From contig CAZSDP010000013.1 of assembly GCA_964605665.1 (NCBI GenBank), positions 49,331 through 113,330 on the forward strand: 64,000 nt of DNA, in the 5' to 3' direction. Position numbers and translations under genes: made by a program. The stretch comes from an uncultured Planctomycetia bacterium (GTDB taxonomy: Bacteria > Planctomycetota > UBA8108 > UBA1146). Below are positions 5,587 through 33,392 of the stretch, one piece after another. Position 1 is the stretch's first letter. Every line of letters begins with the position of its first letter. The notes beneath the pieces were generated by a model. That model worked only from the letters and a program-made list of their open reading frames with translations. It searched no databases and had not been told where the DNA came from.

Positions 5587-8012
5587 AGGAGTCGGAATAC
5601 CTTTCGGATGACCCACTCCAGCGTCAGGAGTGAGACAAACAAGATGATTAACCATTCTGTGTCCCAGAGCGGTTGACGTTCTTCGGAAACTGGAACTTCT
5701 TTTTCAAATGGTTTCACCTCATTGACCACATTGCGGGCCTCGCTGATCCCATGGTACGACCCACCAGACAAGCGCGCAATTTCCGTCAGCCGCGCCCGGT
5801 CCATTCTCGGGTCAGCGTATTCAAGTTGAGGAACAATGACGCGATAGCTAGATCGGGCTGTATCCTCCTCAGAACTGCCTGGGAGCTTAACGGTATGCTT
5901 TCCTAGCTCTTTCGCCTCGAGTGAGACTTCGTAGTACTCAGGTCGCGCAGGATTCTGAATCGCAGTCACCTCTGAGACCTCACCAGAGTCATCTCGAGTC
6001 AGTTCCAGAATTCTCTCTTCTTGTCGAGTGGGCTTGAAGTCGGGCCCCAACGCTCGGGCGAGAACCGTAATGGCTGAGCCCAAGGTGTATTCCCGTTGGT
6101 CTGTCGAGACAGAAAAGCGCTTCGAATCTCCCAGCAACCTGCCGGCGGAGGTAAATCGAATCACCTGCCCCCAAAAGCGATAGAAGTACTTGTTGCCCAC
6201 CAACTTCCTCAAGCGCCATGTGTCATCTGTGAGAGACATGAATGTGCGCCCGCGACCGTAGTACTGGAAAGCGAAAACTGGCCGAGGTTCGTTGGTAAGG
6301 CTTGTACTCTCGGGGTGGACTGCAAGAGCCACCGCCCCACGCTTGATTCGCTTAACCTTTTGGTACCAATAGAAGCCAGGCATCGAATCATCGAGTCGGC
6401 CAGTGAATTCCCACAACTTTCTATTCTGTTCGGGATCTCCTACCAACTGCATCACTGGGTGCTCTAAGCCCTCAGGGGTCAATCGAACATTGAATGGCTG
6501 TGTGATGTTTCCACCGTCGTAGGTGCTCGCTTCAGCATCCTCGAGCTCTACTGGGAACAACTTCTCCAAAGGAGTGCCGCGGAACCGATTGGGCAGGAAC
6601 CAGCGTCCGGACATGAACACCACGCCACCGCCATGGTCATCAACGAACTCGACGAGCCATTGCATCTGTTGCTCGGTCAGATAGTTCTCAGGCACGTCCC
6701 CGAGAATCACGACGTGATACTCAAACAGGTCCTCACGCGTGCGCGGGAATCGCCGGATCGACATTGTGCCCGTTGATGACTCATTGACGTATTCAGGATC
6801 CGCTGACTGAAGAAGGATCTTCGCCTTCATAGTGGGATCCCGAATCAATGCATGCATCAAGTAGCGGTAGTCGTAGCGCGGCGGTCCTTCCACATAGAGA
6901 ACCTCGATTTTCTCATCGAGAACACGAATCGGTTTCTCTTCGAAGTTGTTTTCGGAGAAGAGCTCTCCGTCTTGCTCCTCGATCTCAACTCGCGCAGTAA
7001 ATTGACCGGGCATTCGCGGATAGAATTCGATGCGTACGGGTGTAATCTCCCCCTTTTCCCCGAGGGTCACGTAGCGAACGATCGGGGGCTGAACAGGACG
7101 ACCTGCCAGTGGGCCTTCAGTCGCCAGTAGAGTTAACTCCGCTCGGACACTCTCTCCAGCAAAGCCTTCGCTCGACACCTGAAAATCTACCGGTACGAGA
7201 TCACCTTCGAGAACGACTTCGGCAATCTCGAGGTTGAACACGCGGATGTCGCGAGGTTCGTCGGGATTGCCCACTCCAATCGTGAAAATCGGAATCTCGC
7301 GGCTGGCGAGTCGTTGCGCGGCTTCTTCGGGACGCACCACGCCCCCGTTATCGCGACCGTCACTAAACAAGACCACCGCTGCGACCGACTCGCCACGAAG
7401 CTCATTTACCGACTCGTAGATCGAGTCGCCAAGTCGAGTGACTCGACCCCGTAGCTCCAGACCATCGAAATCGATCTGTCCGGGCGTCTCAGGATTGTCC
7501 TCACCGTAGCGGGGCAGATCAGCAACGAGTTCAATCCCGTTTGAACAGGAGACAACCCTGACATTCGCCTTCTGGCGCAGTTCCTCGATGATGCCGGCTT
7601 CTTGACCAAGAACTGCCTTCACCAAATCGAGTCGATCATCGGCTGGCGTGTAGGGAGCACCGAGTATTGACGACAACTGCGATTCGAGAGCCGGATCGGC
7701 ATACCGATCAGAGATTCCCATCGAGTAGCTATCGTCGATCAAGAGCAGAATCCAAGAATTCTCTCTTTGAACGCGCTCTTCAGTGAGCGTCGGACGACAG
7801 AGAATTGCCACGACCACCGCGATGACCAGAAATCTCAGAGTCCCGAGTATCCACCGGCCAGGACTTGTGAGAGTCCCACGTTCACCGCGGTAGAACCACC
7901 ACACCCCGATCAGCATCGCGGGCAGGATGAGGAGAGCGATCACCCACAGTTCGGGCGCTCCCAGAAGTTCGATCCGCTTCTCAAATCGAGTCTCGGCAAA
8001 TGCGAGGATCAT
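5583..8012 (-). CDS. vWA domain membrane protein with Ig-like and class I glutamine-amidotransferase-like (DUF1355-like) domains
   Basis: MIDAS-like LLIDDSYSM and LFSDG motifs; KIEVLYVEGPPRYDYRYL and YHVVILGDV segments; N- and C-terminal TM helices; ATGA coupling. Confidence 0.75.
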   Translation of the reverse strand: MILAFAETRFEKRIELLGAPELWVIALLILPAMLIGVWWFYRGERGTLTSPGRWILGTLRFLVIAVVVAILCRPTLTEERVQRENSWILLLIDDSYSMGISDRYADPALESQLSSILGAPYTPADDRLDLVKAVLGQEAGIIEELRQKANVRVVSCSNGIELVADLPRYGEDNPETPGQIDFDGLELRGRVTRLGDSIYESVNELRGESVAAVVLFSDGRDNGGVVRPEEAAQRLASREIPIFTIGVGNPDEPRDIRVFNLEIAEVVLEGDLVPVDFQVSSEGFAGESVRAELTLLATEGPLAGRPVQPPIVRYVTLGEKGEITPVRIEFYPRMPGQFTARVEIEEQDGELFSENNFEEKPIRVLDEKIEVLYVEGPPRYDYRYLMHALIRDPTMKAKILLQSADPEYVNESSTGTMSIRRFPRTREDLFEYHVVILGDVPENYLTEQQMQWLVEFVDDHGGGVVFMSGRWFLPNRFRGTPLEKLFPVELEDAEASTYDGGNITQPFNVRLTPEGLEHPVMQLVGDPEQNRKLWEFTGRLDDSMPGFYWYQKVKRIKRGAVALAVHPESTSLTNEPRPVFAFQYYGRGRTFMSLTDDTWRLRKLVGNKYFYRFWGQVIRFTSAGRLLGDSKRFSVSTDQREYTLGSAITVLARALGPDFKPTRQEERILELTRDDSGEVSEVTAIQNPARPEYYEVSLEAKELGKHTVKLPGSSEEDTARSSYRVIVPQLEYADPRMDRARLTEIARLSGGSYHGISEARNVVNEVKPFEKEVPVSEERQPLWDTEWLIILFVSLLTLEWVIRKVFRLL

Positions 8013-10210
8013 GCATGCCTCCTCGCCCGTCGCCCGCTAAAGAAGCGAGCGAGCGCACTCTCTGCGATTAGCAATCCAAGCACGACCCAGAAAATTGGCA
8101 TCCAGAGATCGCCGGTTCCATAGTCGTCAATCGTCTCAATCTCGTCTTGCTTCTCGACCAGCAACAAATCGGGGTAAAGCTCTATGAGATCTTCGGGTAG
8201 CAAAGCGGTGAGATCGCCTTCTCTTGGATCGGCGTTGACCGCGAACCACTCCGACCGGCTTTCGTTCTCGCCTCGCCCACCAAACCGAATCTCGTAGGTG
8301 CCGGGAACTGACTGTCCATCGATGGAGAGGTCGAAGCTTCGCCGGTCTTCACGCTCTTCGAGAACCACCGGAACACCGTCACCGCTCGGTCTCACCAACA
8401 GCACCCTCGGCGCGTAGTCATCTGCAGAGATGACTTGTTTGAACGGTTCTCCGATTGCCAGATTACGAGAGGTCTCATCCTGTGTCGCGAGATACGGCAG
8501 AGTTTCGTAGAGAAACACCAAGTACGCGGGGGGAATCGGGAAATTGCTCCATCGTCGGCCGGCGCCGATGGTCAACGCGAGGGTTGTTCCCTTTCCGAAT
8601 CGCTTCTCCAGCAACGCGGGAGTCTCTTGAGGATCATCGAGGGTCAGAAGCACGCTCGACCCTTCAGAGGAACCTGGGCTCACGTAACCATGAATCGCCA
8701 CGTCAGCGATTCCAGCTTCAGGAGTCTCTGCGAGGTAAGAGAGACTTGGATGCTCCACGTCTGCAATCTGGAAGTGGTAGTAGGTCCTTCTTTCTCGATC
8801 TACAATCACTCGGTCTGGTTCATATGGGAACCAACCATCTCCACCCCGCCAAGAGCGTGTTCGGTAGTTTGCGGTTCTGAACCGATCTCCAGGAAAGAAG
8901 AGGACCCCGCCCCCTTCCGAGATGAACTCCTCGAGACGCTCGACTTCAGGCTCAGAGAATTCAGGAACATCAACCAAGATCAAGACGTCAAATCCGTCGA
9001 GTACTTCACCTGAAAACTGATCTGGAGTGATGGTGCTGAGAAGATAAGGACTCAACCGGACTCCAGTCTCGTCGACTCGATCTCCAGCCAGAGCTGCTTT
9101 CAGCCAATCCGCTTCGGAACTGTTGTCCTGCGCATCGTAACTTCCGTCAACGACCAGGATCTCGACCGACTCCCGAACATCGAAGACTGCGAGTCTCTCA
9201 TTGTCGACTTCAAGGTCATCGCTTCGAACCAGCGCTTTGACCCTCGTCTGTCCCACAGATCTGAAAACATGGGGAAATGAAACTGAAACACTGGCGCCCG
9301 GTTCCACTGAGATTCTTCGAGACCCCTGAACCTCACCGTCGATCCAAAGTTCTGCTTCCAACCCGGCAACTGCTTCTCGGCCATAGTTCTCGACCGTCAT
9401 TTGGAATGTCGTGGGAAGATCGACCGCCAGAAGCGGTGTGCCACATGTCACAGAAGAGACCGATACGTTGCGAGCACGAGGAGCAGAAGCTGGATGCACA
9501 AAGACTCGAGCACCCGCCTCTGTCAGCCGGCCGAGTGCCTCTCGAATCGCGGGATCGGTGGAGCCATCTCCACCAACCCAGTCGCGCTTTTGCAAATCGG
9601 AGTAGAGGTGAATCAACCAGGGAGTGTCACGTGACGAGCCCGTTGTAACCCAATCCGCCGCAACCGACAAAAGAGGCGCGACGTCCATCGACTCATAGGC
9701 GATCGACGCTTCTTCTAACTGCTCGAGAACTAGTAATGACCCGGTGTCGGTCACCACTTCCGGGGTCGGAGTGATGGTATCGGGAAATCCTCCACCGTAG
9801 ATCAACCCAACGCGATCCCCCTTCGATAGCGACTTCAACCGATCACGAGCAGAATCTGCTGCGACTCTCAGGGAGGATCGTCCGGTGCTCTGCAATGCCA
9901 TCGAGTAGCTGCGGTCGAGCAGAAACAGCTCCGAGCGACCCGCATCCCCGGTCAAGACCGGTAGAGAACCCGAGTCGAGGCTGGGCCTTGCCATCGCGAG
10001 TACGAACAACAGCACCGCCGCGGTTCGAATCAACAGCAACAGTAAATTCTCGAGACGCAGACGTCTTCGGTGCTTTTTCATGGCGCGGAGAAGGAACTCC
10101 ATCGCCGCCCATGGCACCCGCTGGTATCGCTGACGATTGATCAAATAGATGATGATCGGAATCGCTCCGAGCGATAGAAATCCTAGCATCCCTGGATTGA
10201 TCCAAGTCAT
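8009..10210 (-). CDS. BatA (aerotolerance regulator N-terminal) + vWA domain protein
   Basis: N-terminal NPGMLGFLSLGAIPIIIYLINRQRYQRVPWAAMEFLL is the BatA signature; LLDRSYSM MIDAS; C-terminal TM helix. Confidence 0.8.
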   Translation of the reverse strand: MTWINPGMLGFLSLGAIPIIIYLINRQRYQRVPWAAMEFLLRAMKKHRRRLRLENLLLLLIRTAAVLLFVLAMARPSLDSGSLPVLTGDAGRSELFLLDRSYSMALQSTGRSSLRVAADSARDRLKSLSKGDRVGLIYGGGFPDTITPTPEVVTDTGSLLVLEQLEEASIAYESMDVAPLLSVAADWVTTGSSRDTPWLIHLYSDLQKRDWVGGDGSTDPAIREALGRLTEAGARVFVHPASAPRARNVSVSSVTCGTPLLAVDLPTTFQMTVENYGREAVAGLEAELWIDGEVQGSRRISVEPGASVSVSFPHVFRSVGQTRVKALVRSDDLEVDNERLAVFDVRESVEILVVDGSYDAQDNSSEADWLKAALAGDRVDETGVRLSPYLLSTITPDQFSGEVLDGFDVLILVDVPEFSEPEVERLEEFISEGGGVLFFPGDRFRTANYRTRSWRGGDGWFPYEPDRVIVDRERRTYYHFQIADVEHPSLSYLAETPEAGIADVAIHGYVSPGSSEGSSVLLTLDDPQETPALLEKRFGKGTTLALTIGAGRRWSNFPIPPAYLVFLYETLPYLATQDETSRNLAIGEPFKQVISADDYAPRVLLVRPSGDGVPVVLEEREDRRSFDLSIDGQSVPGTYEIRFGGRGENESRSEWFAVNADPREGDLTALLPEDLIELYPDLLLVEKQDEIETIDDYGTGDLWMPIFWVVLGLLIAESALARFFSGRRARRHA

Positions 10211-11115
10211 CGAATCGTCCCCGCTCTTCGCTGTAGAAAACGGGTCATGACCACATCGAATCGTTTCGAAGTGTCGACCAGCTCATAATCGATCATCGCT
10301 CCCCGACATGTCCGCTTCACCTCGTCAACAAATGAGTTGACCTCAGACAAGTAGGCTTCACGAAGAGAATTCGGATCTGCCAGTAACTCTGGGAACTCTT
10401 CAAGCCCTTCGAACATGGTCATCCGCTGAAATGGGAAATGAAGTTCATCTGGATCCATCAGATGGAACAGAATGACCTCATGCCCCTGGTGACGAAGCCG
10501 GCGGAGGCCGAGACCGATCTTTCCGACGTCGTCGAACAAATCGGTGATCAAAATCAGCAGTGACTTGCGCTTGATCCGCTCCGAAATCCGAGAGAGCACT
10601 TCACCCAGGTCGGTCGCATCTTTTCCTGGTTCTGCAGCAACAACCCGAACCAGGTCTTGCAAGTGACCGCGACTCGAACTGATCGGAACAGAGGTCCGGA
10701 CATCATTGTCGAAGACCATCGCTCCGACAGCGTCCTGCTGCCAAAGAACCAGATACGAAAGGGCCGCAGCGAGAGTCCGACCGTACTCGAGCTTGGTCAT
10801 CGAGCTGCCGGACTTAAAGTTCATCGACTCACTGGCATCGAGTAGCACATGGGTGCGGAGATTGGTCTCTTCTTCGTATTGTTTGATGTAGTAGCGATCG
10901 GAACGTCCGTAGACCTTCCAATCGATGTGCCGAATGTCATCGCCGGGCACATATTCCCTATGCTCGGCAAACTCAACCGAAGCACCGCGGTAGGGACTCT
11001 TGTGAAGTCCCGAAATGAACCCCTCGACGATCAATCTTGCTCGGATCTCAAGACGACTGATCTTCGAGAGTTCGACGGGATCGAGATAGTTTCGGTCGCG
11101 CTCCTCAGCGGCCAT
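10207..11115 (-). CDS. DUF58 domain protein (MoxR partner, vWA-like)
   Basis: [49 protein letters not shown] and LLDASESM motifs; directly downstream of MoxR. Confidence 0.9.
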
Positions 11116-12166
11116 CCGTGGGGATCTCCTCCACCAAACGACTAATCACATGATCGGATGTCACACCCTCTGCCTCGGCCGCAAAGTTTGTCAGGATCCG
11201 ATGTCGTAGTACCGGATGTGCGACCTTCTTGATGTCGTCATAGGTCACATGGGAACGACCGGCCAGGATGGCGTTGGCTTTGCCACCCAAGACGAGGTAC
11301 TGCCCCGCACGAGGGCCTGCTCCCCAATCGATGTGCTGACGAACATGCTCAGGCGCTTCACCAGTGCTCACTCGCGTCGCTCTCGTCAGGCGCAGTGCGT
11401 ATCGGATCACCTCATCCGCTGCTGGCACACTGCGAACCAACTTCTGTAGATCGAGGATCTCTTCGCGTCCCACGACCGGTTTCACATCGATCGATTCACC
11501 ACCTGTTGTTCGTTGCATGATCGCCAACTCTTCGTCCTGAGTTGGATAGTCAACTCGAACGTTGAACATGAATCGGTCGAGCTGCGCTTCAGGTAGTGGA
11601 TAGGTACCTTCTTGCTCGATGGGGTTTTGTGTCGCGAGCACGAAGAATGGTTGCTCCAGGCGATGGCGGGTTCCACCGACGGTTACCTGCTTTTCCTGCA
11701 TCGCTTCGAGAAGCGCTGCTTGCGTCTTCGGTGGGGTACGGTTGATTTCATCCGCAAGGATCACATTGGCGAAGACCGGGCCGCTGAGAAATCTGAAATT
11801 ACGCTCCCCTGTCTCTGGATCGTCCTGAATCACTTCGGTTCCGGTGATGTCGGAAGGCATCAAGTCGGGAGTAAACTGAATTCGGTTGAAGCTCAGAGAG
11901 AGCGTCTCTGCGAGAGTGCTAATCATCAGGGTCTTCGCAAGTCCCGGAACCCCGACCAATAGGCAGTGTCCTCCTGCGAAGAGCGACAACAAGAGCTGAT
12001 CGATGACGTCGTCTTGACCAACGATCACTCGAGCGAGCTCTGTTCGAACTTCATTCGAAGCAGTTTGGATCCTCTCAAAGCGCGCCTCATCGCCTCCACC
12101 TGCGGGGCTCCCGTCTGCTGGGCTACCTGCATCAGGGGTTGGGTTGAAATCCTCTTCGGCGTGCAT
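11105..12166 (-). CDS. moxR: MoxR family AAA+ ATPase
   Basis: Walker [24 protein letters not shown], Walker [44 protein letters not shown]. Confidence 0.95.
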
Positions 12167-13014
12167 CGAGCTTCCTCTCCGGTGACCTAAGGGTGTGGGG
12201 CGTGCAGGCTGACGTCAGCCGTATCGCATCACCACCCGAGATCGGGATTGCGGGTTCCCCTGGGGAACGAGACCCGTGCAAATTGATGGCCATGACCCGC
12301 CGTTGCCTCAGCGGGTATCGTACATCCGGAGGTACTCAGGAGACTCCTGCTCCCACATTTCCCCGGAATCTCACATTTCGGCGCCCGATCCTGCGGGGTT
12401 CCCCTCCCCCGGATCGAGTCGATGAATCGCCCCATTTCAGTCTTCGCGGACGATCCGCGAAAAGACTTGGCGCATCCTCCGATATCGGTCGATCGACCCA
12501 GTTCTCCGGAGGGTTCGAGGAGAATATCGGGCCATGAGTTCCCCCGCCACCAACTGCGAGGAGAGAAGTGCCAGATCCTTCCCCAAGGCGAAAATCGCCA
12601 GAGGAATCTCACGATCCCAGAAATTCGGCATCCGGGATGAATCGGGAGTCAATTCGCACCCACCGCTTCGCTAGATTCGGCTATTACACCTTGAATCGGC
12701 CGATTCTCACCCAATCTGGGTTTTTCTGCTTCGAGGATCTCGTCGGAAGATGGCGCTCCGAGCCCTCTCCGACCACCACCGAGCCCCCCGATCCCGATTT
12801 CGAGACGTTGACTTCGCTCCTGGGGTGCATATTCTCTTCCCACCCCGTCGATTTCTTGGGCGGGGGCACTGTATTTTGAAGCCCCGAAAACGGTAGGTCG
12901 GAGCGGGAACCCCGCCGAACGGGAGGAGTTGCGACTTCCCTCGTCCGCTTTCCCATTCCCACAAATCGCGGGGAACGGCCATCGAGAAGGTGGCCAAATC
13001 GATCGTGGCCCTGA

Positions 13015-14532
13015 ATGGAAGGCACTCCGATGGATGGCGTCAATGCACGCGAGCTCTTCGCAGCCCAAAGGAGCCTGACCTACGACGACTTAATCTTGCT
13101 TCCCGGCTATATCGACTTCGGAATCGGAGAAGTCGAACTGAGTTCGAAACTGACGCGGGAAGTCTCGCTGGCAAGCCCCCTCTGCAGTTCACCGATGGAT
13201 ACCGTGACCGAGTCTGACATGGCGGTCAATCTAGCCCTTTGCGGGGGGATTGGTTTCATCCACTACAACAACACCATCGAAGAACAGTCTGAACTGGTGC
13301 GCCGAGTGAAACGATTCGAGAACGGGTTCATCACAGACCCCCTCGTCCTCGGTCCAGACCATAAGATTCGTGACATCGATGAGGTCCACCAACGTCATGG
13401 CTTTTCGGGGATCCCGATCACCGACTCCGGAGATCTTGGAGGCAAGTTGATCGGTATCGTGACCAACCGCGACATCGATTTCGAAAAGGATCGCGACATC
13501 GCTCTTCGAGAGGTGATGACCACGGACTTAGTGACTGCCGAGCAAGGACTCAGCCTCCGTGAGGCGAACAAGATCATCCGAGAATCGAAGAAGGGCAAAC
13601 TCCCCATCGTAGACCGGGCAGGGAGATTGGTTGCTCTTGTCTCAAGAACCGACTTGAAAAAGAACCGAGACTTCCCTGAGTCTTCAAAGGATGGAGAGAA
13701 CCGACTTCTCGCAGGAGCGGCGCTCTCGACTCGGTTGGAAGATCGGGATCGACTCGATGCGTTGGTGACCGCCGGCGTGGATGTGGTCGTGGTCGATTCA
13801 GCCCAAGGGAACTCCTCCTTCCAAGTCGAGATGCTCCAACATGCCAAGCGGGAATATCCCGACCTGCAGCTGATCGCCGGCAATGTGGTCACCAAGAGTC
13901 AATGTGCAAACTTGATCGCCGCTGGAGCGGATGGAATTCGTGTCGGTATGGGCCCTGGCTCGATTTGCACGACGCAAGAGACGATGGCGGTCGGGCGGGG
14001 GCAAGCTGCAGCAGTCTACAGCTGCGCCCTACACTGCCGCGAACAAGGAGTTCCCGTGATCGCCGACGGTGGAATTCGGGACATCGGTCACATTGTTAAA
14101 GCTCTCGCGATGGGGGCCTCCAGCGTGATGATGGGCTTGATGTTCGCTGGCACCGCTGAGACTCCTGGCGAGTACTACTACCAAAATGGTGTTCGTTTGA
14201 AGCGGTACCGCGGCATGGCTTCGATCGAGGCGATGGAGTCGGGTGGCGGAAAGCGGTACTTCGCAGAAGGCGAGCGGATCAAGGTCGCTCAGGGTGTCTC
14301 TGGAATGGTGATGGACAAAGGCTCCGTGAGGAACCTGATCCCCTACTTGAAACAGGGGCTACGTCACGCGCTGCAAGACATTGGCGTCCGCTCGGTTCCG
14401 TCACTCCACAGTGCACTGGACTCCGGGGATCTCACCTTCGAATTGCGCACCATCTCCGCTCAGAGAGAGGGCGGAGTGCACGACATGTACTCCTACGAAA
14501 AGCCGGTACTGGGAACGCGAGAACGCGACTAG
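13015..14532 (+). CDS. guaB: IMP dehydrogenase, eukaryote-type, with CBS/Bateman domain
   Basis: SSPMDTVTE, catalytic [18 protein letters not shown]. Eukaryotic signatures [27 protein letters not shown] and [16 protein letters not shown]. Upstream of guaA. Confidence 0.95.
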
Positions 14533-14556: not shown

Positions 14557-16113
14557 GTGACCCACGTTCTCGACCACGAGTTTTGCGCAATCCTCGACTT
14601 TGGCTCGCAATACAGCCAGCTCATCGCCCGTCGGGTTCGAGAGAACCACGTCTATTGTGAGATTCTCCCCCACGACACGACCGCTGCGACTTTGGCGTCG
14701 AAAAACATCCGAGGAGTGATCCTCTCCGGAGGGCCATGTGGAGTCTATGAGGATCACGCCCCCACCCTCGACCCTGAACTCTTCGAGTTAGGAGTTCCGG
14801 TCCTCGGGATTTGCTACGGAATGCAGGTCGCATGCCAAACCCTTGGTGGTTCGGTGACGCCTGCGGCAGAGCGTGAATACGGAGACACTCAACTCGTGGT
14901 CGACGACCAGAGCGATCCGATTTTTGGTGGGTTACCGCAGCAGCTCCAGGTCTGGATGAGTCATGGAGATCACGTGGTGTCGATCGGCGATCGCTTTGAA
15001 GCGATTGCACACACCGAGAACTCGCCTTTGGCAGTCGTCAGAGATCGCAAGCGCCAGTTCTACGGTCTCCAGTTCCACCCCGAGGTGACTCACACGCAAG
15101 ACGACGGAAAGATCCTGAAGAACTACCTCTACGATCTTTGCAAGTTCTCCGGCGACTGGAAGGTGGGCGACTACGTCGAGCAAGCAGTCGCGGAGATTCA
15201 GAAGCAGGTGGGTGATCAGCGGGTGATCTGCGCGCTTTCAGGCGGAGTCGATTCGTCGGCCGTCGCCATGCTGATCCATCGCGCGATCGGAGATCGGTTG
15301 AGCTGCTTCTTCATCGACAACGGCGTACTCCGCGAAGGTGAAGCGAGCCAGGTCAGAGAGTTGTTCGCGGAACGCTTCGGCCTCGACTTTCGATTTGTCG
15401 ATGCGAGCGATCGCTTTCTAGAGGCGCTCTCAGCGGTAGAAGATCCTGAGAGAAAGCGGAAGATCATCGGTCATCAATTCATCGAGGAGTTTCGCGAAGC
15501 TGCGAAGCTATTCGAGGGAGTCAAGTTTCTCGCCCAAGGGACGCTCTATCCTGATGTTATCGAGAGCGTTTCCCCATTTCATGGCCCCAGCGCGACCATC
15601 AAAAGTCACCACAATGTCGGAGGGCTACCCGAGGATCTCGACTTCGAATTGGTGGAGCCGCTCCGTTTCTTGTTCAAGGATGAAGCTCGCCAGATCGGCA
15701 AGGAACTCGGTCTGCCAGACGAAGTCATCCAGCGACAACCATTCCCAGGTCCTGGGTTGGCAATCCGCATCGTCGGTGAAGTGACTCGAGAACGCTTAGA
15801 GGTCCTCAGAAAAGCGGATCGAATCGTTCAGGAAGAAATCCAAAATTACCCAGATCGACTCGATATCTGGCAGAGTTTCGCCGTCCTACTACCAGTTCGC
15901 TCTGTCGGAGTACAAGGCGATCAACGCACCTACGACAATGCTGTCGCTCTGCGAGTCGTCGAGTCGACCGACGGAATGACTGCAAATTGGGTCTACCTAC
16001 CGCAAGAAACTCTCGCGCGAATCTCAAACCGAATCTGTAATGAGGTGAAGGGCGTCAACCGCGTCGTCCTCGACATCTCGAGTAAGCCACCGTCGACCAT
16101 CGAATGGGAGTAG
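14557..16113 (+). CDS. guaA: GMP synthase (glutamine-hydrolysing)
   Basis: [70 protein letters not shown]. Confidence 0.97.
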
Positions 16114-16117
16114 ATCG

Positions 16118-16627
16118 ATGCCAAATTTCCACCAGGGAGAGCTCGATGGTTCCCCGCTATCGATTGCAGTCGTCGTCTCAAGATTCAATGAATCGATCAC
16201 CGAACGTCTCGTCGATAGCTGTGTGGACGAACTGATACGGCTTGGAGTCGAAGACGAGGAAATCGATGTCTTCTGGGTTCCGGGAGCCTTTGAGATTGCA
16301 CCTGTGGTCAGTCGCCTACTCGATGACAGTCGCTACGACGCAATCATCACTTTAGGATGTGTAGTACGCGGGGAGACCAGCCACTACGATCACATCGCGC
16401 AAACCACCGCGCATCAGCTCTCTGAGCTCGCCCAAAACGACGCAATACCGGTCATCTTCGGAGTGCTCACCACAGAAAACCAGGCCCAGGCACTCGCCCG
16501 ATCGGGTGGTGAAAAGTCGGACACTGGAGAGTACGTTGCACAAACCGCAGTGGAGATGGCAAACCTGTTTGCAGAGCTGCCGGAAACTGACGACGAGGAA
16601 GAGGATGAAGTAGAGATGGTGGACTAA
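16118..16627 (+). CDS. ribH: 6,7-dimethyl-8-ribityllumazine synthase
   Basis: IAVVVSRFN, VPGAFEI, LGCVVRGETSHYD, PVIFGVLT, AVEMANL; acidic C-terminal extension. Confidence 0.93.
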   Translation: MPNFHQGELDGSPLSIAVVVSRFNESITERLVDSCVDELIRLGVEDEEIDVFWVPGAFEIAPVVSRLLDDSRYDAIITLGCVVRGETSHYDHIAQTTAHQLSELAQNDAIPVIFGVLTTENQAQALARSGGEKSDTGEYVAQTAVEMANLFAELPETDDEEEDEVEMVD

Positions 16628-16695
16628 TCGAGGTTCGCCGCGTCCGATCGACTGAACGCTTCTTCCCCAAGCTCCAAATGCGAAACTGTGTACAG

Positions 16696-17121
16696 ATGTC
16701 CAAACGCCGACAAGCTCGCGAACTCGCACTGCAGTGTCTCCATCAGTGGGACCAACAAGGCCCAGATTCTGGACTCGACGCTGCAACCGAGATCATCGAG
16801 CGGCTCGGCAGTGATCCTGAAGTTCGTCTCTACTGCGGTCGCCTGCTCGATACATTCTGGGACCACTCGATCCCGATCGATGAGAAGATCACCGCATGCG
16901 CTGCAAACTGGCGCCTCGATCGAATGGCAGTCGTCGATAGAAATGTACTCCGACTTGCCGTCACCGAACTTCTCTTTTTTGAGGACATCCCACCGAAGGT
17001 GGTGATTGACGAGGCGATCGAAATCGTGAAGAAGTTCTCCACTGAGCGATCGGGCTCGTTCGTCAACGGCATCCTCGACCGGGTGCATTCAGAACGGAGT
17101 GACACGAATGGCCCTCGGTAA
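16696..17121 (+). CDS. nusB: Transcription antitermination factor NusB
   Basis: MSKRRQARELALQ, WRLDRMAVVDRNVLR, VVIDEAIEIVKKFS...FVNGILD; ribH-nusB synteny. Confidence 0.95.
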   Translation: MSKRRQARELALQCLHQWDQQGPDSGLDAATEIIERLGSDPEVRLYCGRLLDTFWDHSIPIDEKITACAANWRLDRMAVVDRNVLRLAVTELLFFEDIPPKVVIDEAIEIVKKFSTERSGSFVNGILDRVHSERSDTNGPR

Positions 17122-18136
17122 GCTTTTCGGGCGAGGTAAAAAGGACGAAGAAAAAACCTCCTCTATCAGTGAAGCGGTATCGACGGAGGGGCAAGACTCG
17201 CAAGACGATGGGAGCGAATCTACAGCAGCTCCTGAAAAGAAAGCTGGGGCGTTCGCGGCTCTGCGCCGCGGTCTATCGAAGACTCGTGAAAAGCTCTCAT
17301 CTGTTCTCACTTTTGGCCGCAAGCTCGACGATGATCTCCTCGAAGACATTGAAACAGCTCTCATCCAGGCAGACTTCGGTCCCGTGACCGCAACCGATCT
17401 CTGCGAGCAATTACGAGATGCCTATAAAGACCGAGAGTTCTCTCCTGAGGATGCGATCCCCTTCTTGAAAGAGCGTCTGACCGAACGGCTCGGGCAAGAC
17501 ACCTCGCTGAATTTCTCTTCAGAAGGAACGAGCGTATTCGTTGTTGCGGGCGTGAACGGCACCGGGAAGACCACCTCGATTGCGAAGATCGCCCATCAGT
17601 TTCGGCAAGAAGGACGAACCGTGGTCCTCGCTGCTGCGGATACTTTTCGAGCAGCCGCGGTGGAGCAATTGGGCATCTGGAGTGAGCGACTCGGGATCAA
17701 AATGGTTAGTGGGCGCGACGGTGGCGATCCCGCCTCAGTCGTCTATGACGCTGTCTCAGAAGCTCTCGAGATGAACGCTGATGTGTTGATCATCGACACC
17801 GCAGGTCGGCTCCACACTGAGAAGGGGCTGATGGAGCAGCTCGCAAAGATAGGACGGGTGATCGATAAGAAGTTACCCGGTGCACCGCACGAGGTTCTAC
17901 AAGTCTTGGACGCCACAACTGGACAAAATGCGGTTCAACAGGCGAGGGAATTCAACAAGACGATGCCGGTGACTGGTCTGATTCTCACGAAACTCGACGG
18001 AACTGCCCGCGGAGGCGTCATCTTCCCGATTCTCGATCAGGTCGGGCTACCGGTTAAATACATTGGAGTCGGGGAGGGAATCGAGGACTTGCAGTCATTC
18101 GATCCAACTCGATTTGTCGAAGCGCTCTTCGAGTAA
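17108..18136 (+). CDS. ftsY: Signal recognition particle receptor FtsY
   Basis: GVNGTGKTTSIAKIA, AADTFRAAAVEQL, IIDTAGRL, LTKLDGTARGG, GVGEGIEDL. Confidence 0.95.
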   Translation: MALGKLFGRGKKDEEKTSSISEAVSTEGQDSQDDGSESTAAPEKKAGAFAALRRGLSKTREKLSSVLTFGRKLDDDLLEDIETALIQADFGPVTATDLCEQLRDAYKDREFSPEDAIPFLKERLTERLGQDTSLNFSSEGTSVFVVAGVNGTGKTTSIAKIAHQFRQEGRTVVLAAADTFRAAAVEQLGIWSERLGIKMVSGRDGGDPASVVYDAVSEALEMNADVLIIDTAGRLHTEKGLMEQLAKIGRVIDKKLPGAPHEVLQVLDATTGQNAVQQAREFNKTMPVTGLILTKLDGTARGGVIFPILDQVGLPVKYIGVGEGIEDLQSFDPTRFVEALFE

Positions 18137-30008: not shown

Positions 30009-31685
30009 GTGGAATCAACGTGTGTACTGAGCTGGAAAATCAACGGTAAGCTGGTACGCCATTCCATCGATGGAGGCTCCGCAGTTCTCGGCCGTGACTC
30101 TAAATGCGAGATTCGGATCAATCTAGAAACGATCTCTCGACGCCACGCCCTGTTTCGTTATGAAGCAGGCGGGTGGTATGTGAGTGATCTGGGTTCGAGA
30201 AATCTCGTCTATGTGAATGGAGTCCAGGTTGATAAACACTCCCTGGAGGACGGGGACCGAATCCTCGTCGGTGAAGTTGAGCTCTTCTGTGGCCTGACTC
30301 GTGGAGCACCTTCGAACGCCGAAATCGTCCTCTCGGAGGCTCACCCCGAAGAGAGCATTGCGCGATCGATTCGTATGGACGATCTCGCGGCGAGCCTGAG
30401 TGAGGACTCTCGGGGTCTTCCCATCTCTATGCATGCCAGCCAAGCAACTTCAGTTGAAGATCTCCAAGAAAGCTCGATCAGCCTGCCGATCGGGATGCCA
30501 CTCCTCGAGCTGTTCCAAACCGCGTCTGAGACTCTTCTTTCTGGAAGAGATCTTGATTCGATGCTCGACCGAGTTCTCGAATTGATGTTTCGATCACTTC
30601 CGAAGATCGAGAGAGGGCTGGTCTGTCTCCTTGAAGGCGATGAACTGGTCGCTCGGGCTCATCGGTCACCGATCGGTGCTCAAAGTGTTCACAAGGTCAA
30701 TTTATCGCGAAGCGTCGCTGACTCCGCCATCAAAGAACGCGAAGCGGTATTGGTCCAAGACGCACGACTCGATGAGAGGTTCAACACTGCTGAGAGCATC
30801 GTCGCCCTACGAATTCGCTCTGCGATGTGCGCTCCATTGACTCATGGCGATGAGATCTTGGGAATTGTCTATGTCGATTCGACACTTCCCGGACAGGCAT
30901 TTTCTGAGGACGATCTCGCACTCCTCTCGACTTTGAGCATGCTGAGTGCCGTCGCGGTTGAGCAAGCGCGCCTTCGCGAAGAGATGGAATGGGAGAAAGA
31001 ACTTCGCGGTGACCTCAGCAAGTTCCTCCCCCCCCAACTGGTCGATCAGCTCGTCGAAGGTGAAGTCAGTGCTGCGGAGGCGATGAAGACTCGTGAAGCA
31101 GAGATCACGGTTTTCTTTGCAGATATGGTTGGATTCACTCGGCTCTCTGAGCAACTCTCCGCAACCGAGATCACTGCCTTACTGAATGAAATCTTCGCGC
31201 AGTTAACGGAAGTGATCTTCCAACATGGTGGGACGATTGACAAATACAACGGAGATGAGATCGTCGCGTTTTTCGGAGCTCCAAAGGAGCAACCCGACCA
31301 TGCGATTCGCGCAGTGAGAGCTTGCCTTGGTATGCAAAAATCTATCGAAGCTTTCAATGAGAACCCTTCACACGATCGCCCGAAATTAGAAATGCGAATC
31401 GGAGTCAATACTGGTTTCGCGACTGTGGGAGGGATTGGACATCCGAAGCGCCTCGACTACTCGGTAATCGGGGATGTGGTCAATACGGCAAAGCGTCTTG
31501 AGTCGACGATCTGTCCTCCGGGCGAAGTCGTCGTCGGCACAGCAACTCGCACCGCGCTCTCCGAGTCATTTGTTTGTGAAGAGCTCGAGCCCGTGCCACT
31601 CAAAGGTAAGGCGGAAAAAGTCACCCCATGGCGAGTACTCACAGAGGTCACCGCGCAAGAATCTGCTGAGGAAGATCAACGCTGA
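30009..31685 (+). CDS. FHA-GAF-class III adenylate cyclase
   Basis: FHA (LGRD..ISRRHA..DLGSRN.VYVNG), GAF (SIVALRIRSAMCAPL..GIVYVDS), cyclase (FFADMVGFT, IDKYNGD, LDYSVIGDVVNTAKRLES). Lys/Asp pair indicates ATP specificity. Confidence 0.9.
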   Translation: MESTCVLSWKINGKLVRHSIDGGSAVLGRDSKCEIRINLETISRRHALFRYEAGGWYVSDLGSRNLVYVNGVQVDKHSLEDGDRILVGEVELFCGLTRGAPSNAEIVLSEAHPEESIARSIRMDDLAASLSEDSRGLPISMHASQATSVEDLQESSISLPIGMPLLELFQTASETLLSGRDLDSMLDRVLELMFRSLPKIERGLVCLLEGDELVARAHRSPIGAQSVHKVNLSRSVADSAIKEREAVLVQDARLDERFNTAESIVALRIRSAMCAPLTHGDEILGIVYVDSTLPGQAFSEDDLALLSTLSMLSAVAVEQARLREEMEWEKELRGDLSKFLPPQLVDQLVEGEVSAAEAMKTREAEITVFFADMVGFTRLSEQLSATEITALLNEIFAQLTEVIFQHGGTIDKYNGDEIVAFFGAPKEQPDHAIRAVRACLGMQKSIEAFNENPSHDRPKLEMRIGVNTGFATVGGIGHPKRLDYSVIGDVVNTAKRLESTICPPGEVVVGTATRTALSESFVCEELEPVPLKGKAEKVTPWRVLTEVTAQESAEEDQR

Positions 31686-31715: not shown

Positions 31716-33209
31716 TCATTGAAGTCCTTGAACCACCAGTTCGAGAATCCCATCCCCATCGAGATCTGCTGGTAACGCGACGTGGGCTTGGAAAGAAGTC
31801 CCCTTGGGACGCTGGCCTGCCGCTTCGAATCCAAAGTCCTTCAAGCCAGAGTCATTCGTCGCGAGAATTTGAATCAGGTCGATCGCACCATCCCCATCGA
31901 TATCTCGCAGAGGTCGAAGTCCTGGGTCAGCGCCAACGCGCCACCCCTCCGAAGGGACTTCACTTTGATCCCAGGGGAGAAGAGGAAGACCTTCTGGAGA
32001 GAACCGCAAAGGTCTCAATGGTCGCTCTCCCACTCTCTGACCGAGGAGGCCGGGAACCCGAAAACCCTCTGCGTCTTCTTTCCCCGGCAATATCTCTAGG
32101 GGATGCTCGGGAGAAACCAAACCGATAGCAGGCCCCTGCGCTTCCTCGAGCAGTGCCGATTCACCAAAGTGATAGACAGAGAGACCGCTTCCCAAAGGGG
32201 ACACTCTCTCCGGATCGGATGAGGTCGGCCAAACGATGATCTCGTCCCGACCATCGCCATCAACATCGGCGACATCCCAAGCCGTGATTCCCAGCGGAGC
32301 CACCCGACGCAATGCTGGAGCAACCGGATGGGGAACTCCCTGATCGTCGACGGAGCAGATCCAAAGATCGGAGTCTGCTCGCCGTCCACCACCATAAAGG
32401 CTGTGGACTCCTGCGGCATCCGCAGCAGTGAGCTGGGCTAGCTTCGCAGGATGATCTCCACCGGGATAGAGCGCGGACATCACCGACTGAGTCGCTTTAC
32501 CGTGTCCTAGTCCAAGAAGATGTCCCATCTCATGGAGCAACACTGTGCTGAGTTCAACGATTTTAGGTCGCCGAAGCGCAACCCCCTGCGGCGAATGCGA
32601 GCCCTCCTTCGATCCCGCTGAACCTTGAGCAACTGTCCATTCCAAATCCGCATTCAAATGGATGAAGCCGGTCCCTTCCCAGCTGGGGTCGGTCGCATGA
32701 GCGACCCCACCGTCCCAACCGAGAAAGGGAGAGCAATCATCATGTCGACCTCGTCGCCAAGAGATCACGAAGTCCGGTTCGACTCCGTCCTCAGCCTCTC
32801 GAAACTGCACCACTCCGGTTCGTGCCCACTGGGCTCCCATCGCCTCAATCGTCTCGCGCACCTGGCTCTCGGGAAGTTTCTCACCTTCCGGCTCGTAGCT
32901 CCAAGTCAACCGCGATCCACCAGCAGCCCTTCGTCCGCGAACCTCAAAGGGTGGAAACCAAGGTCCGCGATTCGGCCATGAGGAGAGTTCTTGATCGCCA
33001 GGAGACCCGAGCACGAAATCGAGCAGAGCGTCGTGCTCAGGCTCCGCTCCGCTCTGCTCCTTCTTCGAATCGGAATCTGAGCCGGCATTCGGCCCACAGC
33101 CACCACTTAGAACAACGGTGCACAGAAGGAGGAGCACCCAGAACCCGCTCTGCAGGCAGCTGACTCGGTGAGCGGAGTTGTCAGTCAGAATCAAGGCGAA
33201 CCCGTGCAT
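31716..33209 (-). CDS. Matrixin (M10) metalloprotease lipoprotein with FG-GAP-like repeats
   Basis: HEMGHLLGLGH zinc motif, Met-turn SVMSALY, structural Zn H-D-H-H (HDDCSPF..GVAHA..IHLN), DVDGDGRDE/DIDGDGAID/DLDGDGILE repeats, lipobox LSGGC. Start uncertain (33209-33344). Confidence 0.85.
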   Translation of the reverse strand: MHGFALILTDNSAHRVSCLQSGFWVLLLLCTVVLSGGCGPNAGSDSDSKKEQSGAEPEHDALLDFVLGSPGDQELSSWPNRGPWFPPFEVRGRRAAGGSRLTWSYEPEGEKLPESQVRETIEAMGAQWARTGVVQFREAEDGVEPDFVISWRRGRHDDCSPFLGWDGGVAHATDPSWEGTGFIHLNADLEWTVAQGSAGSKEGSHSPQGVALRRPKIVELSTVLLHEMGHLLGLGHGKATQSVMSALYPGGDHPAKLAQLTAADAAGVHSLYGGGRRADSDLWICSVDDQGVPHPVAPALRRVAPLGITAWDVADVDGDGRDEIIVWPTSSDPERVSPLGSGLSVYHFGESALLEEAQGPAIGLVSPEHPLEILPGKEDAEGFRVPGLLGQRVGERPLRPLRFSPEGLPLLPWDQSEVPSEGWRVGADPGLRPLRDIDGDGAIDLIQILATNDSGLKDFGFEAAGQRPKGTSFQAHVALPADLDGDGILELVVQGLQ

Positions 33210-33392
33210 CTCACCCCTGATCTTCAACAGCAGTCTTCTGATGCAGCTTGACCAGGCCCGACGAAAGGACCCCTGATCGAGCGCGAAGGGCACAGAGAAA
33301 CCGATTCTCGAGTCGGGCACAAGATGTGAAAGCGCCCTGACCAACTCACAGCTGGCCAGGGCACGTTGAAATCAATGAGGGATCAGCACGCT

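Follow-up and report, generated by a model that had tools for sequence, protein, structure and literature searches.

The IMP dehydrogenase (IMPDH) gene of the window, the 64-kb stretch of DNA analysed here, very probably serves a marine Planctomycetota bacterium as its housekeeping guaB. The encoded enzyme appears to belong to an old, monophyletic clade of eukaryote-type enzymes that has been inherited vertically in this lineage, and for which regulation by ATP and GTP through three nucleotide sites is predicted. The gene and its surroundings are as follows:

12808..12835, plus strand: promoter-like element TTGACT-16-TATTCT, whose -35 box and TAnnnT -10 box are kept in related Planctomycetota loci
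13030..14532, plus strand: guaB, eukaryote-type IMP dehydrogenase of 500 aa (ORF identification and family models)
14557..16113, plus strand: guaA, bacterial-type glutamine-hydrolysing GMP synthase of 518 aa, starting 24 nt past the guaB stop
16118-16627, plus strand: ribH (Pfam families taken from syntenic relatives)
16678-17121, plus strand: nusB (Pfam families taken from syntenic relatives)
17099-18136, plus strand: ftsY (Pfam families taken from syntenic relatives)

The open reading frame reported in the initial annotation, 13015..14532 on the plus strand, exists, and all ten of the peptide strings quoted from it were found at the expected places. This mechanical ORF encodes 505 aa, and residue numbers throughout follow it. 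The true start is almost certainly the ATG at 13030 and not that at 13015, giving a product of 500 aa, because a close relative (L082, whose IMPDH is 97% identical) has ACG in place of the first ATG, a GAAGG lies ~8 nt 5' of the second ATG, and gene callers and homologues begin with MDG or MTDG, with 500-aa products in four independent assemblies. A leader of ~195 nt separates the promoter-like element from guaB. An Rfam scan of the region 5' of guaB returned nothing at gathering score, the only match being isrD at chance level (E = 9), and the leader folded no better than shuffled sequences (z -0.47). In relatives a 172-aa ORF has been called between moxR and guaB; it is not a gene, as indels of 1–2 nt between the window and L082 break its frame.

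By its match to family models the window protein is an IMP dehydrogenase (EC 1.1.1.205). It scored 609.7 bits against NCBIfam TIGR01302 (cut-off 481.5) and 430.6 bits against PF00478 (IMPDH), with PF00571 (CBS) matched in two stretches as a CBS pair that interrupts the catalytic barrel, and models of GMP reductase and GuaB1 remained far under their cut-offs (e.g., NF052358, 237 vs 675). Ranking against PDB chains placed human IMPDH1 at the top (649 bits, E 5.5e-194), followed by human IMPDH2 (625), Ashbya (604), Cryptococcus (580) and the kinetoplastid enzymes (494–496), and all the chains that scored above the best bacterial one, that of B. anthracis (388 bits), were eukaryotic. BLASTP identities were 59% to both human IMPDH1 and Phytophthora, as against 44%, 41% and 39% to the canonical GuaB of B. 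anthracis, S. coelicolor and E. coli, respectively. On these similarities the window IMPDH belongs to the eukaryote-type subfamily, as the initial annotation had recognized.

The closest relatives of the window IMPDH were all bacterial, numbering in the hundreds and sharing 60–97% identity with it. One monophyletic clade (100% NJ bootstrap), also recovered in the ML tree, comprised at least 196 distinct sequences from bacteria. Its members come from marine and anammox Planctomycetota (Kuenenia, Scalindua, Brocadiales), Armatimonadota, Moduliflexota and Hydrogenedentota, as well as from many Leptospira species (all those sampled) and Turneriella, with the phyla intermixed and the internal branches short. 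The eukaryote-type enzyme is thus the standard IMPDH of a large, multi-phylum bacterial group and not a peculiarity of one genome. The Vampirovibrionia constitute a second bacterial lineage with a eukaryote-type IMPDH. Exemplified by Vampirovibrio chlorellavorus, these Vampirovibrionia/Melainabacteria enzymes are 62% identical to the window protein and have its site-3 and KKGK residues, but they form a clade apart, tend to join the stramenopiles and retain the eukaryotic YRGMGS and DSSQG states. In the literature covered, outside which lay the potentially relevant Hedstrom reviews, we found no account of the bacterial clade or of IMPDH regulation in Leptospira or Planctomycetota.

The surroundings of the gene are those of a resident. 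The GuaA encoded next to it is a GMP synthase of the usual bacterial kind (NF000848, 769.9 bits), in agreement with the initial annotation, and the co-directional, closely packed ribH, nusB and ftsY (16118..18136) make up, together with guaBA, a housekeeping cluster. The order guaB-guaA-ribH-nusB-ftsY is kept in Planctomycetota and was the same in four independent assemblies, and guaA lay directly 3' of guaB in all 24 scorable loci of the Planctomycetota lineage, over IMPDH identities from 86% down to ~60%. The base composition of guaB (GC 57.0%, GC3 66.9%) was similar to that of guaA and of the whole window, and a tblastn search with the window protein found no second IMPDH within the 64 kb.

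These data bear on the suggestion, also made in the initial annotation, that the gene came from a eukaryote or giant virus, which as a recent event would mean that this planctomycete, or a close ancestor, took up such an IMPDH in place of or in addition to a canonical guaB. The window protein is indeed nearer to eukaryotic IMPDHs than to any characterised bacterial one, and IMPDH genes do occur on giant-virus contigs. However, its nearest relatives lie within the 100%-supported bacterial clade, and opisthokonts, stramenopiles and land plants are each monophyletic (88%, 98% and 100% support) with the window sequence nested in none of them. The flap insertion of opisthokonts is absent from the window protein, and the upstream promoter as well as the guaB-guaA synteny is kept across the lineage. 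The giant-virus (Nucleocytoviricota) IMPDHs found on metagenomic contigs (L088, L089 and L090) lie among the eukaryote-type branches of the tree and have the Arg/Gln pair described below, but they are only 45–48% identical to the window protein, sit on long branches and lack the majority of the site-3 and KKGK residues; the window gene does not derive from them. The monophyly of the clade, synteny conserved down to ~60% identity and native composition exclude a recent transfer into the source organism, and this reading, to which we attach hardly any probability, is effectively refuted.

The residues of the active site and of the adjoining inhibitor site were mapped onto those of the human enzyme:

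13939..13941, plus strand: Arg309, at the position of human Arg322 in the mycophenolate site (E. coli has Lys)
13966..13968, plus strand: Cys318, the catalytic residue of the GSICTTQ loop (human Cys331)
14254..14259, plus strand: Arg414-Tyr415 flap catalytic dyad, equivalent to human Arg429-Tyr430
14290..14292, plus strand: Gln426, at the position of human Gln441 (E. coli and most canonical GuaB have Glu)

The catalytic Cys is invariant across the 196 clade members, and the IMP-binding Asp of the IADGG motif is present as D351. With these residues the window IMPDH would be expected to oxidise IMP to XMP with NAD+ through a covalent Cys318-XMP* intermediate, whose hydrolysis would be aided by the Arg414-Tyr415 dyad, and the XMP would be passed to the GMP synthase encoded directly downstream. 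The match of Arg309 and Gln426 to the human residues had been pointed out in the initial annotation and was borne out here; in the bacterial clade the Arg was found in 196/196 and the Gln in 195/196 members, at positions where mycophenolate-resistant enzymes have Lys and Glu. Its further proposal, that these two positions separate eukaryotic from bacterial enzymes cleanly, did not hold, since the Arg/Gln pair or mixed pairs also occur in several other prokaryotic and viral representatives. Work from the Hedstrom laboratory reportedly attributes to the Arg/Gln pair part only of mycophenolate selectivity. The A/Y pair is an Ala and a coupled Tyr that are key to the selectivity of bacteria-selective GuaB inhibitors (PMC11481871). 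In the window enzyme this pair is A/D, with Ala263 (194/196 of the clade) and an Asp at the coupled position as in human (196/196). The Ala stands at the position of eukaryotic Ser276, so the NAD site of the clade is not purely eukaryotic.

For the regulatory domain we adopted the nucleotide sites of Buey et al. 2015 (PMC4660370) and matched the residues to those of the Ashbya and human enzymes:

13303..13701, plus strand: regulatory Bateman domain, a CBS pair whose nucleotide sites are of the eukaryote type (Pfam CBS; Ashbya/human mapping)
13321-13326, plus strand: N103-G104
13471-13473, plus strand: site-1 D153
13555-13569, plus strand: L181 and N185
13588-13599, plus strand: KKGK motif, residues 192-195
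13639-13689, plus strand: V209, R211, D213, L214, K216, R218 and K225
13699-13701, plus strand: N229, at the position of Ashbya K245

The segment from RTDL to SKD, which the initial annotation had linked to the third GTP/GDP site, does hold residues of sites 2 and 3. Six site-3 residues of Ashbya gossypii IMPDH, the enzyme that served to define the third GTP/GDP site (PDB 5TC3, 5MCP and 4Z87; 55% identity), are identical in the window enzyme: N118, G119, L196, N200, L229 and K240, corresponding to N103, G104, L181, N185, L214 and K225. The site-2 Arg and Asp (R226/D228 in Ashbya) are likewise present. The KKGK motif (K192-K193-G194-K195; R-V-E-K in E. coli) contains a Gly, Gly 209 in Ashbya, where the RIEK motif of prokaryotes has the Glu that coordinates Mg-ATP (PMC4660370); this Gly is invariant in 196/196 clade members. 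The window enzyme differs from that of Ashbya in lacking the fungal flap insertion and at two site-3 positions. L224 is replaced conservatively by V209 (Ile in human), and K245, which sandwiches the guanine ring, is replaced by Asn229, followed by Arg. The K245 position is occupied by Lys in 186/196 clade members (95%), as well as in a relative 86% identical to the window enzyme (L001), and by Asn in 4/196 clade members; Asn229 could weaken site 3 in the window enzyme itself. An Asn was also seen at this position in the stramenopile Cafeteria.

Canonical GuaB enzymes (E. coli, P. aeruginosa, B. anthracis, S. coelicolor and M. smegmatis) share with the window enzyme the reaction, the fold, the Cys and Arg-Tyr residues, the guaA partner, the Ala of the A/Y pair and both canonical CBS sites (1 and 2). 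They differ in overall identity (only 39–44%), in having a RIEK-type Glu in place of the KKGK Gly, Lys/Glu in place of Arg309/Gln426, and the Tyr of the A/Y pair where the window has Asp, and they are without the site-3 residues (S-G-R-L in E. coli). The pocket in which canonical GuaB of Firmicutes and Actinobacteria binds (p)ppGpp, defined in S. coelicolor by R71, R125, N144, E188, K206 and K210 (PMC9462843), was not present in the window enzyme when these positions were compared. It has L, G, N, G, T and K there, which is the human/Ashbya pattern, as against R, R, N, E, K and K in B. anthracis and S. coelicolor.

Since the eukaryotic set of sites has been kept and both the (p)ppGpp pocket and the RIEK Glu are absent, regulation of the fungal/human type is the most likely for the window enzyme. 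[quoted passage not shown] On the model of the fungal and human enzymes, its octamers would be extended and active when sites 1 and 2 hold ATP, and compacted and inhibited when sites 2 and 3 hold GTP or GDP. We infer GTP inhibition, octamer switching and mycophenolate sensitivity from homology. As the PDB chains ranked above B. anthracis are all eukaryotic, the proposal for the bacterial clade stands on residue conservation. An enzyme of this kind could be eukaryote-like in sequence only, with its Bateman residues serving ATP binding, octamer contacts or another ligand and with no inhibition by GTP/GDP at a third site. The Asn in place of the stacking Lys245 is compatible with such an arrangement, and the IMPDHs of land plants and kinetoplastids show that eukaryote-type enzymes can lose site 3. 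We nevertheless think it unlikely. The residues N118, N200 and K240 of site 3 and the KKGK Gly are 100% invariant in 196 bacterial sequences that are ~58–86% identical to the window enzyme and differ at ~40% of positions, and the alternative inhibitor pocket of bacteria, that for (p)ppGpp, is missing. Moreover, the single substitution N200K in Ashbya abolishes GTP/GDP inhibition (PMC4660370). Fungal/human-type regulation accordingly remains our preferred prediction.

Human IMPDH1 and IMPDH2 (PDB 7RER, 1JCN, 1B3O and 6U8E) offer the closest comparison. They have in common with the window enzyme 59% identity over the full length, the domain layout, the catalytic Cys, the Arg-Tyr dyad, Arg322/Gln441, the KKGK motif and, in sites 2 and 3, N198, R224, D226, L227 and K238. 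By contrast, human Ser276 is Ala in the window enzyme, whose gene lies in a bacterial guaBA operon and which has none of the short insertions that in human IMPDH1 follow DIDF, precede the ELV motif and lie within the flap. The window enzyme also lacks the N-terminal tail with Tyr12 and has Glu343 at the position of Arg356, which argues against a filament interface, and filaments of the vertebrate style would not be expected. The initial annotation had described both filament contacts as lost. The Glu was confirmed, but the residue aligned with Tyr12 precedes the probable start, and since these contacts are conserved in chordates only (PMC7018514) their loss is uninformative.

The deeper origin of the clade was approached by in-house ML analyses that used a single matrix and three outgroup schemes for rooting, with the prokaryotic outgroups verified by gene context. 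Eukaryotes were thinly sampled: a profile search for diverse, slow-evolving ones brought in chiefly Vampirovibrionia and vertebrates, and the trees contained no Amoebozoa, Discoba, Alveolata, Rhizaria, haptophytes or red or green algae. A maximum-likelihood phylogeny of eukaryotic, viral and bacterial IMPDHs had been put forward in the initial annotation as a check on its reading. The bacterial clade was recovered, but the root varied with the outgroup. As the three schemes gave different roots, we claim no direction of transfer. A clade uniting the bacterial clade with the Vampirovibrionia received a RELL of 0.08 or less.

An early eukaryotic IMPDH that already had site 3 could quite possibly have been acquired once by a bacterium; in that event the enzyme would, at a like level of plausibility, have gone on to spread between phyla (Planctomycetota, Spirochaetota, Armatimonadota and others), with a separate acquisition by the Vampirovibrionia. 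With all outgroups the ML backbone was (picoeukaryote,(plants,(stramenopiles,(Vampirovibrionia,(bacterial clade, opisthokonts))))), and over all 945 backbones eukaryote monophyly had a RELL of 0.000 (delta-lnL -31). The unrooted quartet was always {bacterial clade + opisthokonts | Vampirovibrionia + stramenopiles}, with a RELL of 0.004 or less for an opisthokont-stramenopile clade, and the mixed phyla and short internal branches of the bacterial clade fit such a spread. However, the basal position of plants, picoeukaryote and giant viruses tracks branch length, which is the pattern of long-branch attraction, and any long-branched unit that was added went basal (RELL 0.96 and 0.86). In addition, the KH-type z for eukaryote monophyly was just 1.76, and the model and sampling described above weigh against reading much into this backbone.

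It may equally well be that the clade is an old, native bacterial type of IMPDH, sister to the eukaryotic enzyme, which was the second alternative of the initial annotation, or donor of it. We regard this reading as a realistic one, if short of probable, and under it both the KKGK motif and the GTP site 3 would be older than eukaryotes. With verified prokaryotic outgroups only and long-branch units removed, the best backbone was (bacterial clade,((Vampirovibrionia, stramenopiles), opisthokonts)), and the analogues with plants added gave the same picture; among the topologies listed, those in which the bacterial clade branched first had a summed RELL of ~0.74 without plants, and they were also in the majority with plants. 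More distant bacterial IMPDH types, P0170 (Spirochaetaceae) and P0244, already have site-3 residues, so the eukaryotic features need no eukaryotic source. The clade also retains bacterial-like states absent in eukaryotes (GMGPGS, and Ala at human Ser276), and a 2026 preprint likewise has bacteria, in that case Chlamydiota, as sisters of the LECA IMPDH clade. Against this, the rooting flips once giant-virus or fast-evolving eukaryotic sequences join, the Vampirovibrionia still nest among eukaryotes, and the patchy, intermixed phyla would still require much horizontal transfer among bacteria.

Within the window the gene is an ordinary one, the lineage's normal guaB, and its subfamily is large and old in bacteria, monophyletic across several phyla and vertically inherited in this Planctomycetota lineage. 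Reviews and primary papers on IMPDH describe the third guanine-nucleotide site as exclusive to eukaryotes and bacterial enzymes as regulated either through competition of ATP with GTP at site 2 or through (p)ppGpp. To these a third bacterial category can be added, and it is a common one: an enzyme of complete eukaryote type, in which the site-3 residues do not vary over at least 196 sequences from several phyla. There is a caution for drug design, as the target in Leptospira resembles the human enzyme in having Arg/Gln and in lacking the Tyr of the A/Y pair; inhibitors selective for bacterial GuaB would therefore be expected to miss it, and mycophenolate-type compounds may hit it. The clade adds a data point on bacterial input to eukaryotic nucleotide metabolism. 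We put forward, tentatively and with some doubt, that it is the sister or source of eukaryotic IMPDH, in which case the three-site ATP/GTP switch would be a bacterial invention that eukaryotes inherited and that would still be at work in Leptospira, in anammox bacteria and in marine Planctomycetota.

The gene under study and its downstream neighbour are as follows:
13015-14532, + strand: guaB, a mechanically called ORF of 505 residues
starting 24 nt after guaB, + strand: guaA, encoding an ordinary bacterial GMP synthase (NF000848, 769.9 bits)

All peptides quoted in the initial annotation were found in the ORF at 13015-14532. The guaB product scored 609.7 bits against TIGR01302 (NCBIfam; cut-off 481.5), identifying it as an IMP dehydrogenase (IMPDH), and fell far under the cut-offs of the GMP-reductase and GuaB1 models. 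Pfam assigned PF00478 and two CBS stretches, and alignment located the catalytic cysteine (C318), the flap dyad (R414-Y415) and the IMP-binding aspartate (D351), numbered on the 505-residue ORF. Translation almost certainly begins at the second ATG (13030), giving 500 residues. This is because locus L082, whose IMPDH is 97% identical, has ACG in place of the first ATG (13015) in otherwise conserved surroundings that include the second ATG and a GAAGG about 8 nt 5' of it, and because MDG or MTDG is the start called in four independent assemblies and seen in more distant homologues. In L036, a Planctomycetia MAG, several copies of a tandem repeat of about 15 nt, ATGCACGCGGACGGG, lie at or just upstream of the guaB start (about 2170-2260) and would encode a repeated MHADG at the N-terminus.

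This IMPDH is clearly eukaryote-like, as initially claimed. In a search of all PDB sequences the best matches were human IMPDH1 (649 bits), human IMPDH2 (625), Ashbya (604), Cryptococcus (580) and kinetoplastid enzymes (494-496), while the top bacterial chain, from B. anthracis, reached only 388 bits. BLASTP identities were 59% to human IMPDH1 and to Phytophthora, 55-58% to fungi and 47% to olive, versus 44%, 41% and 39% to the GuaB of B. anthracis, S. coelicolor and E. coli. When the library searched was reduced to 50%-identity clusters, the nearest two representatives were one stramenopile and one fungus. The bacterial clade to which the protein belongs, however, differs from eukaryotes in having Ala at human Ser276 in 194 of 196 sequences (window Ala263, 13801-13803), shares GMGPGS with E. 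coli, and has an A/D pair at the GuaB-inhibitor selectivity positions, where bacterial GuaB has A/Y and human S/D. Judged by these residues, the clade is not purely "eukaryotic".

Three guanine-nucleotide sites have been defined in Ashbya IMPDH (Buey et al., PMC4660370). The non-canonical third comprises N118, G119, L196, N200, L224, L229, K240, K245 and a KKGK motif whose Gly takes the place of the Glu in the prokaryotic RIEK motif (PMC4660370); this site was termed exclusive to eukaryotes by Buey et al. (PMC4660370) and by later reviews. We mapped residues using PDB alignments of the Ashbya, Cryptococcus and human enzymes, and E. coli GuaB from MG1655, aligned to the window protein. N103, G104, L181, N185, L214 and K225 are the same residues as in Ashbya site 3, V209 stands at the L224 position (Ile in human), N229 at that of K245, and KKGK occupies 192-195. 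The protein also has site-2 R211/D213 and site-1 D153, with R309/Q426 at the positions of human R322/Q441. The regulatory residues are as the initial annotation described them. By contrast, E. coli GuaB has S-G-R-L, RVEK, V..F and K/E at the matching positions.

Across 196 distinct bacterial eukaryote-type sequences, N118, G119, L196, N200, K240, the KKGK Gly, R226, D228, R322 and the catalytic Cys were 100% invariant and Q441 was kept in 195; the K245 position was Lys in 186, the Asn of the window belonging to a minority of four. As the pocket is invariant while about 40% of positions differ, the alignment indicates that selection acts on site 3. The (p)ppGpp pocket of the S. coelicolor and B. 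subtilis enzymes consists of R71, R125, N144, E188, K206 and K210, and the window protein has L, G, N, G, T and K there, a pattern identical in human and Ashbya. Since the site residues are kept and the (p)ppGpp pocket is absent, the best-supported model, by homology, is the eukaryotic octamer mechanism, in which ATP in sites 1 and 2 would give extended, active octamers and GTP or GDP in sites 2 and 3 would give compacted, inhibited ones.

The filament contacts were proposed to be lost. The human Arg356 position is indeed occupied by Glu343, but the residue that aligns to Tyr12 precedes the probable start codon and both contacts are conserved among chordates only (PMC7018514). Their loss is thus uninformative, being expected for any non-vertebrate IMPDH, and the claim is empty.

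The best 120 matches among 5.8 billion proteins were all bacterial or metagenomic (64-100% identity), and those that were named came from Planctomycetota or Spirochaetota. A survey of one genome per GTDB species, with relatives 58-86% identical, found eukaryote-type IMPDH in marine Planctomycetota MAGs, anammox Planctomycetota (Kuenenia, Scalindua, Brocadiales), many cultured Leptospira (among them L. interrogans, L. borgpetersenii, L. weilii, L. ellisii and L. adleri), a MAG that bears the name L. biflexa, Turneriella and other Spirochaetota, Armatimonadota, Moduliflexota (Vecturithrix, Moduliflexus) and Hydrogenedentota. Binning errors may account for a few of the MAG labels (Caldithrix, Syntrophaceae, Proteobacteria, Bacillota). 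Two loci from one cave dataset, L059 ("Caldithrix sp.") and L063 ("Turneriella parva"), have near-identical IMPDH genes that are sister tips with 100% bootstrap, more likely a sign of misbinning or mislabelling than of an occurrence in Calditrichota. A second, separate eukaryote-type lineage occurs in Vampirovibrionia/Melainabacteria, often on megabase contigs, and took the top ranks of a balanced profile search; its IMPDHs (P0348, P0341, P0361, P0343, P0504 and others) are the most consensus-like eukaryote-type sequences. Public databases label the sequences of the bacterial clade plainly "IMP dehydrogenase". With relatives across several bacterial phyla, the gene is not a peculiarity of this genome.

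More distant bacterial IMPDHs also carry the site-3 set, as in P0170 from Spirochaetaceae (N-G-L-N...K...K plus the motif Gly) and P0244 (S-G-L-N, KKGK, K, K). Consequently, the "eukaryotic" features need no eukaryotic source. The Arg/Gln pair did not hold up as a domain-specific marker.

The initial annotation had considered transfer from a eukaryote or giant virus. A recent transfer into this organism is contradicted by the monophyly of the bacterial clade, by conserved guaB-guaA synteny and by native composition. The neighbouring GuaA is, as had been stated, of ordinary bacterial type, and guaA lies immediately 3' of the IMPDH gene in 24/24 scorable Planctomycetota-lineage loci, over which IMPDH identity falls from 86% to about 60%; it does not directly follow the gene in Spirochaetota or Armatimonadota loci. 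The genes ribH, nusB and ftsY follow guaA on the same strand with near-zero spacing, and a MoxR-DUF58-BatA operon lies upstream on the opposite strand. Assemblies from JGI, NCBI, ENA and Logan all show this gene order, which rules out a chimeric assembly. The GC content of guaB (57.0%; GC3 66.9%) is similar to that of guaA and the whole window, the remainder of which is Planctomycetota-like (DUF1800, DUF7133, xylose-isomerase-like barrels) and, over its 64 kb, holds no second IMPDH. Two adjoining genes, for an FHA-GAF-adenylate/guanylate cyclase protein (30009-31685, + strand) and a matrixin (Peptidase_M10) with FG-GAP repeats (31716-33344, - strand), have domain types better known from eukaryotes.

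Comparison of window 12800-13029 with the regions upstream of position 6001 in L004-L018 (loci of relatives) revealed a promoter with a -35 TTGACT and a -10 TAnnnT box, some 195-220 nt before guaB, that is conserved across the Planctomycetota lineage. After the -10 box comes a GC-rich hairpin that shows compensatory changes (CCCCG...CGGGG in the window, CCCC...GGGG in relatives). The last 230 nt are nearly identical between the window and L082, versus about 80% farther upstream. The guaB leader had no Rfam match and folded no better than shuffles (z -0.47). A 172-residue ORF between moxR and guaB (window 12290-12810; L082 7263-7781) is probably not a gene: its frame is broken in the window, and 1-2-nt indels separate the two copies. 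The version called in relatives had no Pfam hits. Synteny, assemblies, composition and promoter together argue for long vertical inheritance of guaB within the lineage, and the gene is ordinary for its genome.

In a neighbour-joining tree (Scoredist, 200 bootstraps) the 27 sampled bacterial sequences were monophyletic (100%), as were opisthokonts (88%), stramenopiles (98%) and land plants (100%), so that the window sequence falls outside all the eukaryotic groups sampled. The flap insertion of opisthokonts is likewise missing from it. A 94% cluster contained stramenopiles, opisthokonts, Vampirovibrionia and the bacterial clade. For maximum likelihood (65 taxa, 475 columns) we used a home-written program with a Gonnet 1992-derived rate matrix and four gamma categories (alpha about 1), and applied RELL resampling to all backbones that link the major groups. 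Of the 945 backbones scored with the full set of outgroups, the best was (picoeukaryote,(plants,(stramenopiles,(Vampirovibrionia,(bacterial clade, opisthokonts))))), and eukaryote monophyly received a RELL of 0.000 (delta-lnL -31, KH-type z 1.76).

The nearest "outgroup" representatives proved to lie on giant-virus contigs with NCLDV capsid, P8 core protein, ribonucleotide reductase, eIF-1a and Rpb6 genes. Of these giant-virus-like metagenomic contigs, L088 has its own IMPDH and GMP synthase (7001-8440 and 9651-11246), and L089 (7001-8521) and L090 (7001-8476) each have an IMPDH. In trees these IMPDHs adjoin the eukaryote-type crown and distort its rooting. Another near representative lay on a compact eukaryotic contig. 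P0150, an IMPDH-like protein grouping with a compact-eukaryote sequence (it clusters with P0154, on locus L086), keeps KKGK and has GNTSLNS instead of GSGSICT in its catalytic loop, thus lacking the catalytic Cys, and may be a pseudo-enzyme. The contig of P0138 (L087) encodes an IMPDH with a flap insertion of about 20 residues, a Fapy-DNA glycosylase and many small ORFs without Pfam hits.

When the giant-virus and compact-eukaryote units were removed and outgroups of prokaryotic context kept, the best backbones had the bacterial clade as the first branch, sister to a group of eukaryotes and Vampirovibrionia; of the topologies listed, those with this order had a summed RELL of about 0.74 without plants and a majority with plants too. 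Either long-branched unit, giant viruses or picoeukaryote, moved to the base when re-added (RELL 0.96 and 0.86), which is a signature of long-branch attraction. The stable unrooted split was {bacterial clade + opisthokonts / Vampirovibrionia + stramenopiles}, and an opisthokont-stramenopile clade never exceeded a RELL of 0.004; therefore, at least one bacterial group is nested among eukaryotes. Vampirovibrionia are the better candidate, and their grouping with stramenopiles, not with the other bacteria, in the likelihood backbones suggests that these algal predators were party to a transfer of their own. The position of the bacterial clade depends on the root, which a single-matrix model and thin eukaryote sampling do not fix. 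A 2026 preprint independently describes bacteria (Chlamydiota) as sisters to the IMPDH clade of LECA.

Full-text literature searches and key allostery papers yielded no description of the bacterial clade, nor of IMPDH regulation in Leptospira or Planctomycetota, and an earlier mention is possible. The broader conclusion is readily testable: a complete eukaryote-type IMPDH, with allosteric regulation as predicted here, is the normal enzyme of several bacterial phyla, contradicting the regulation literature.
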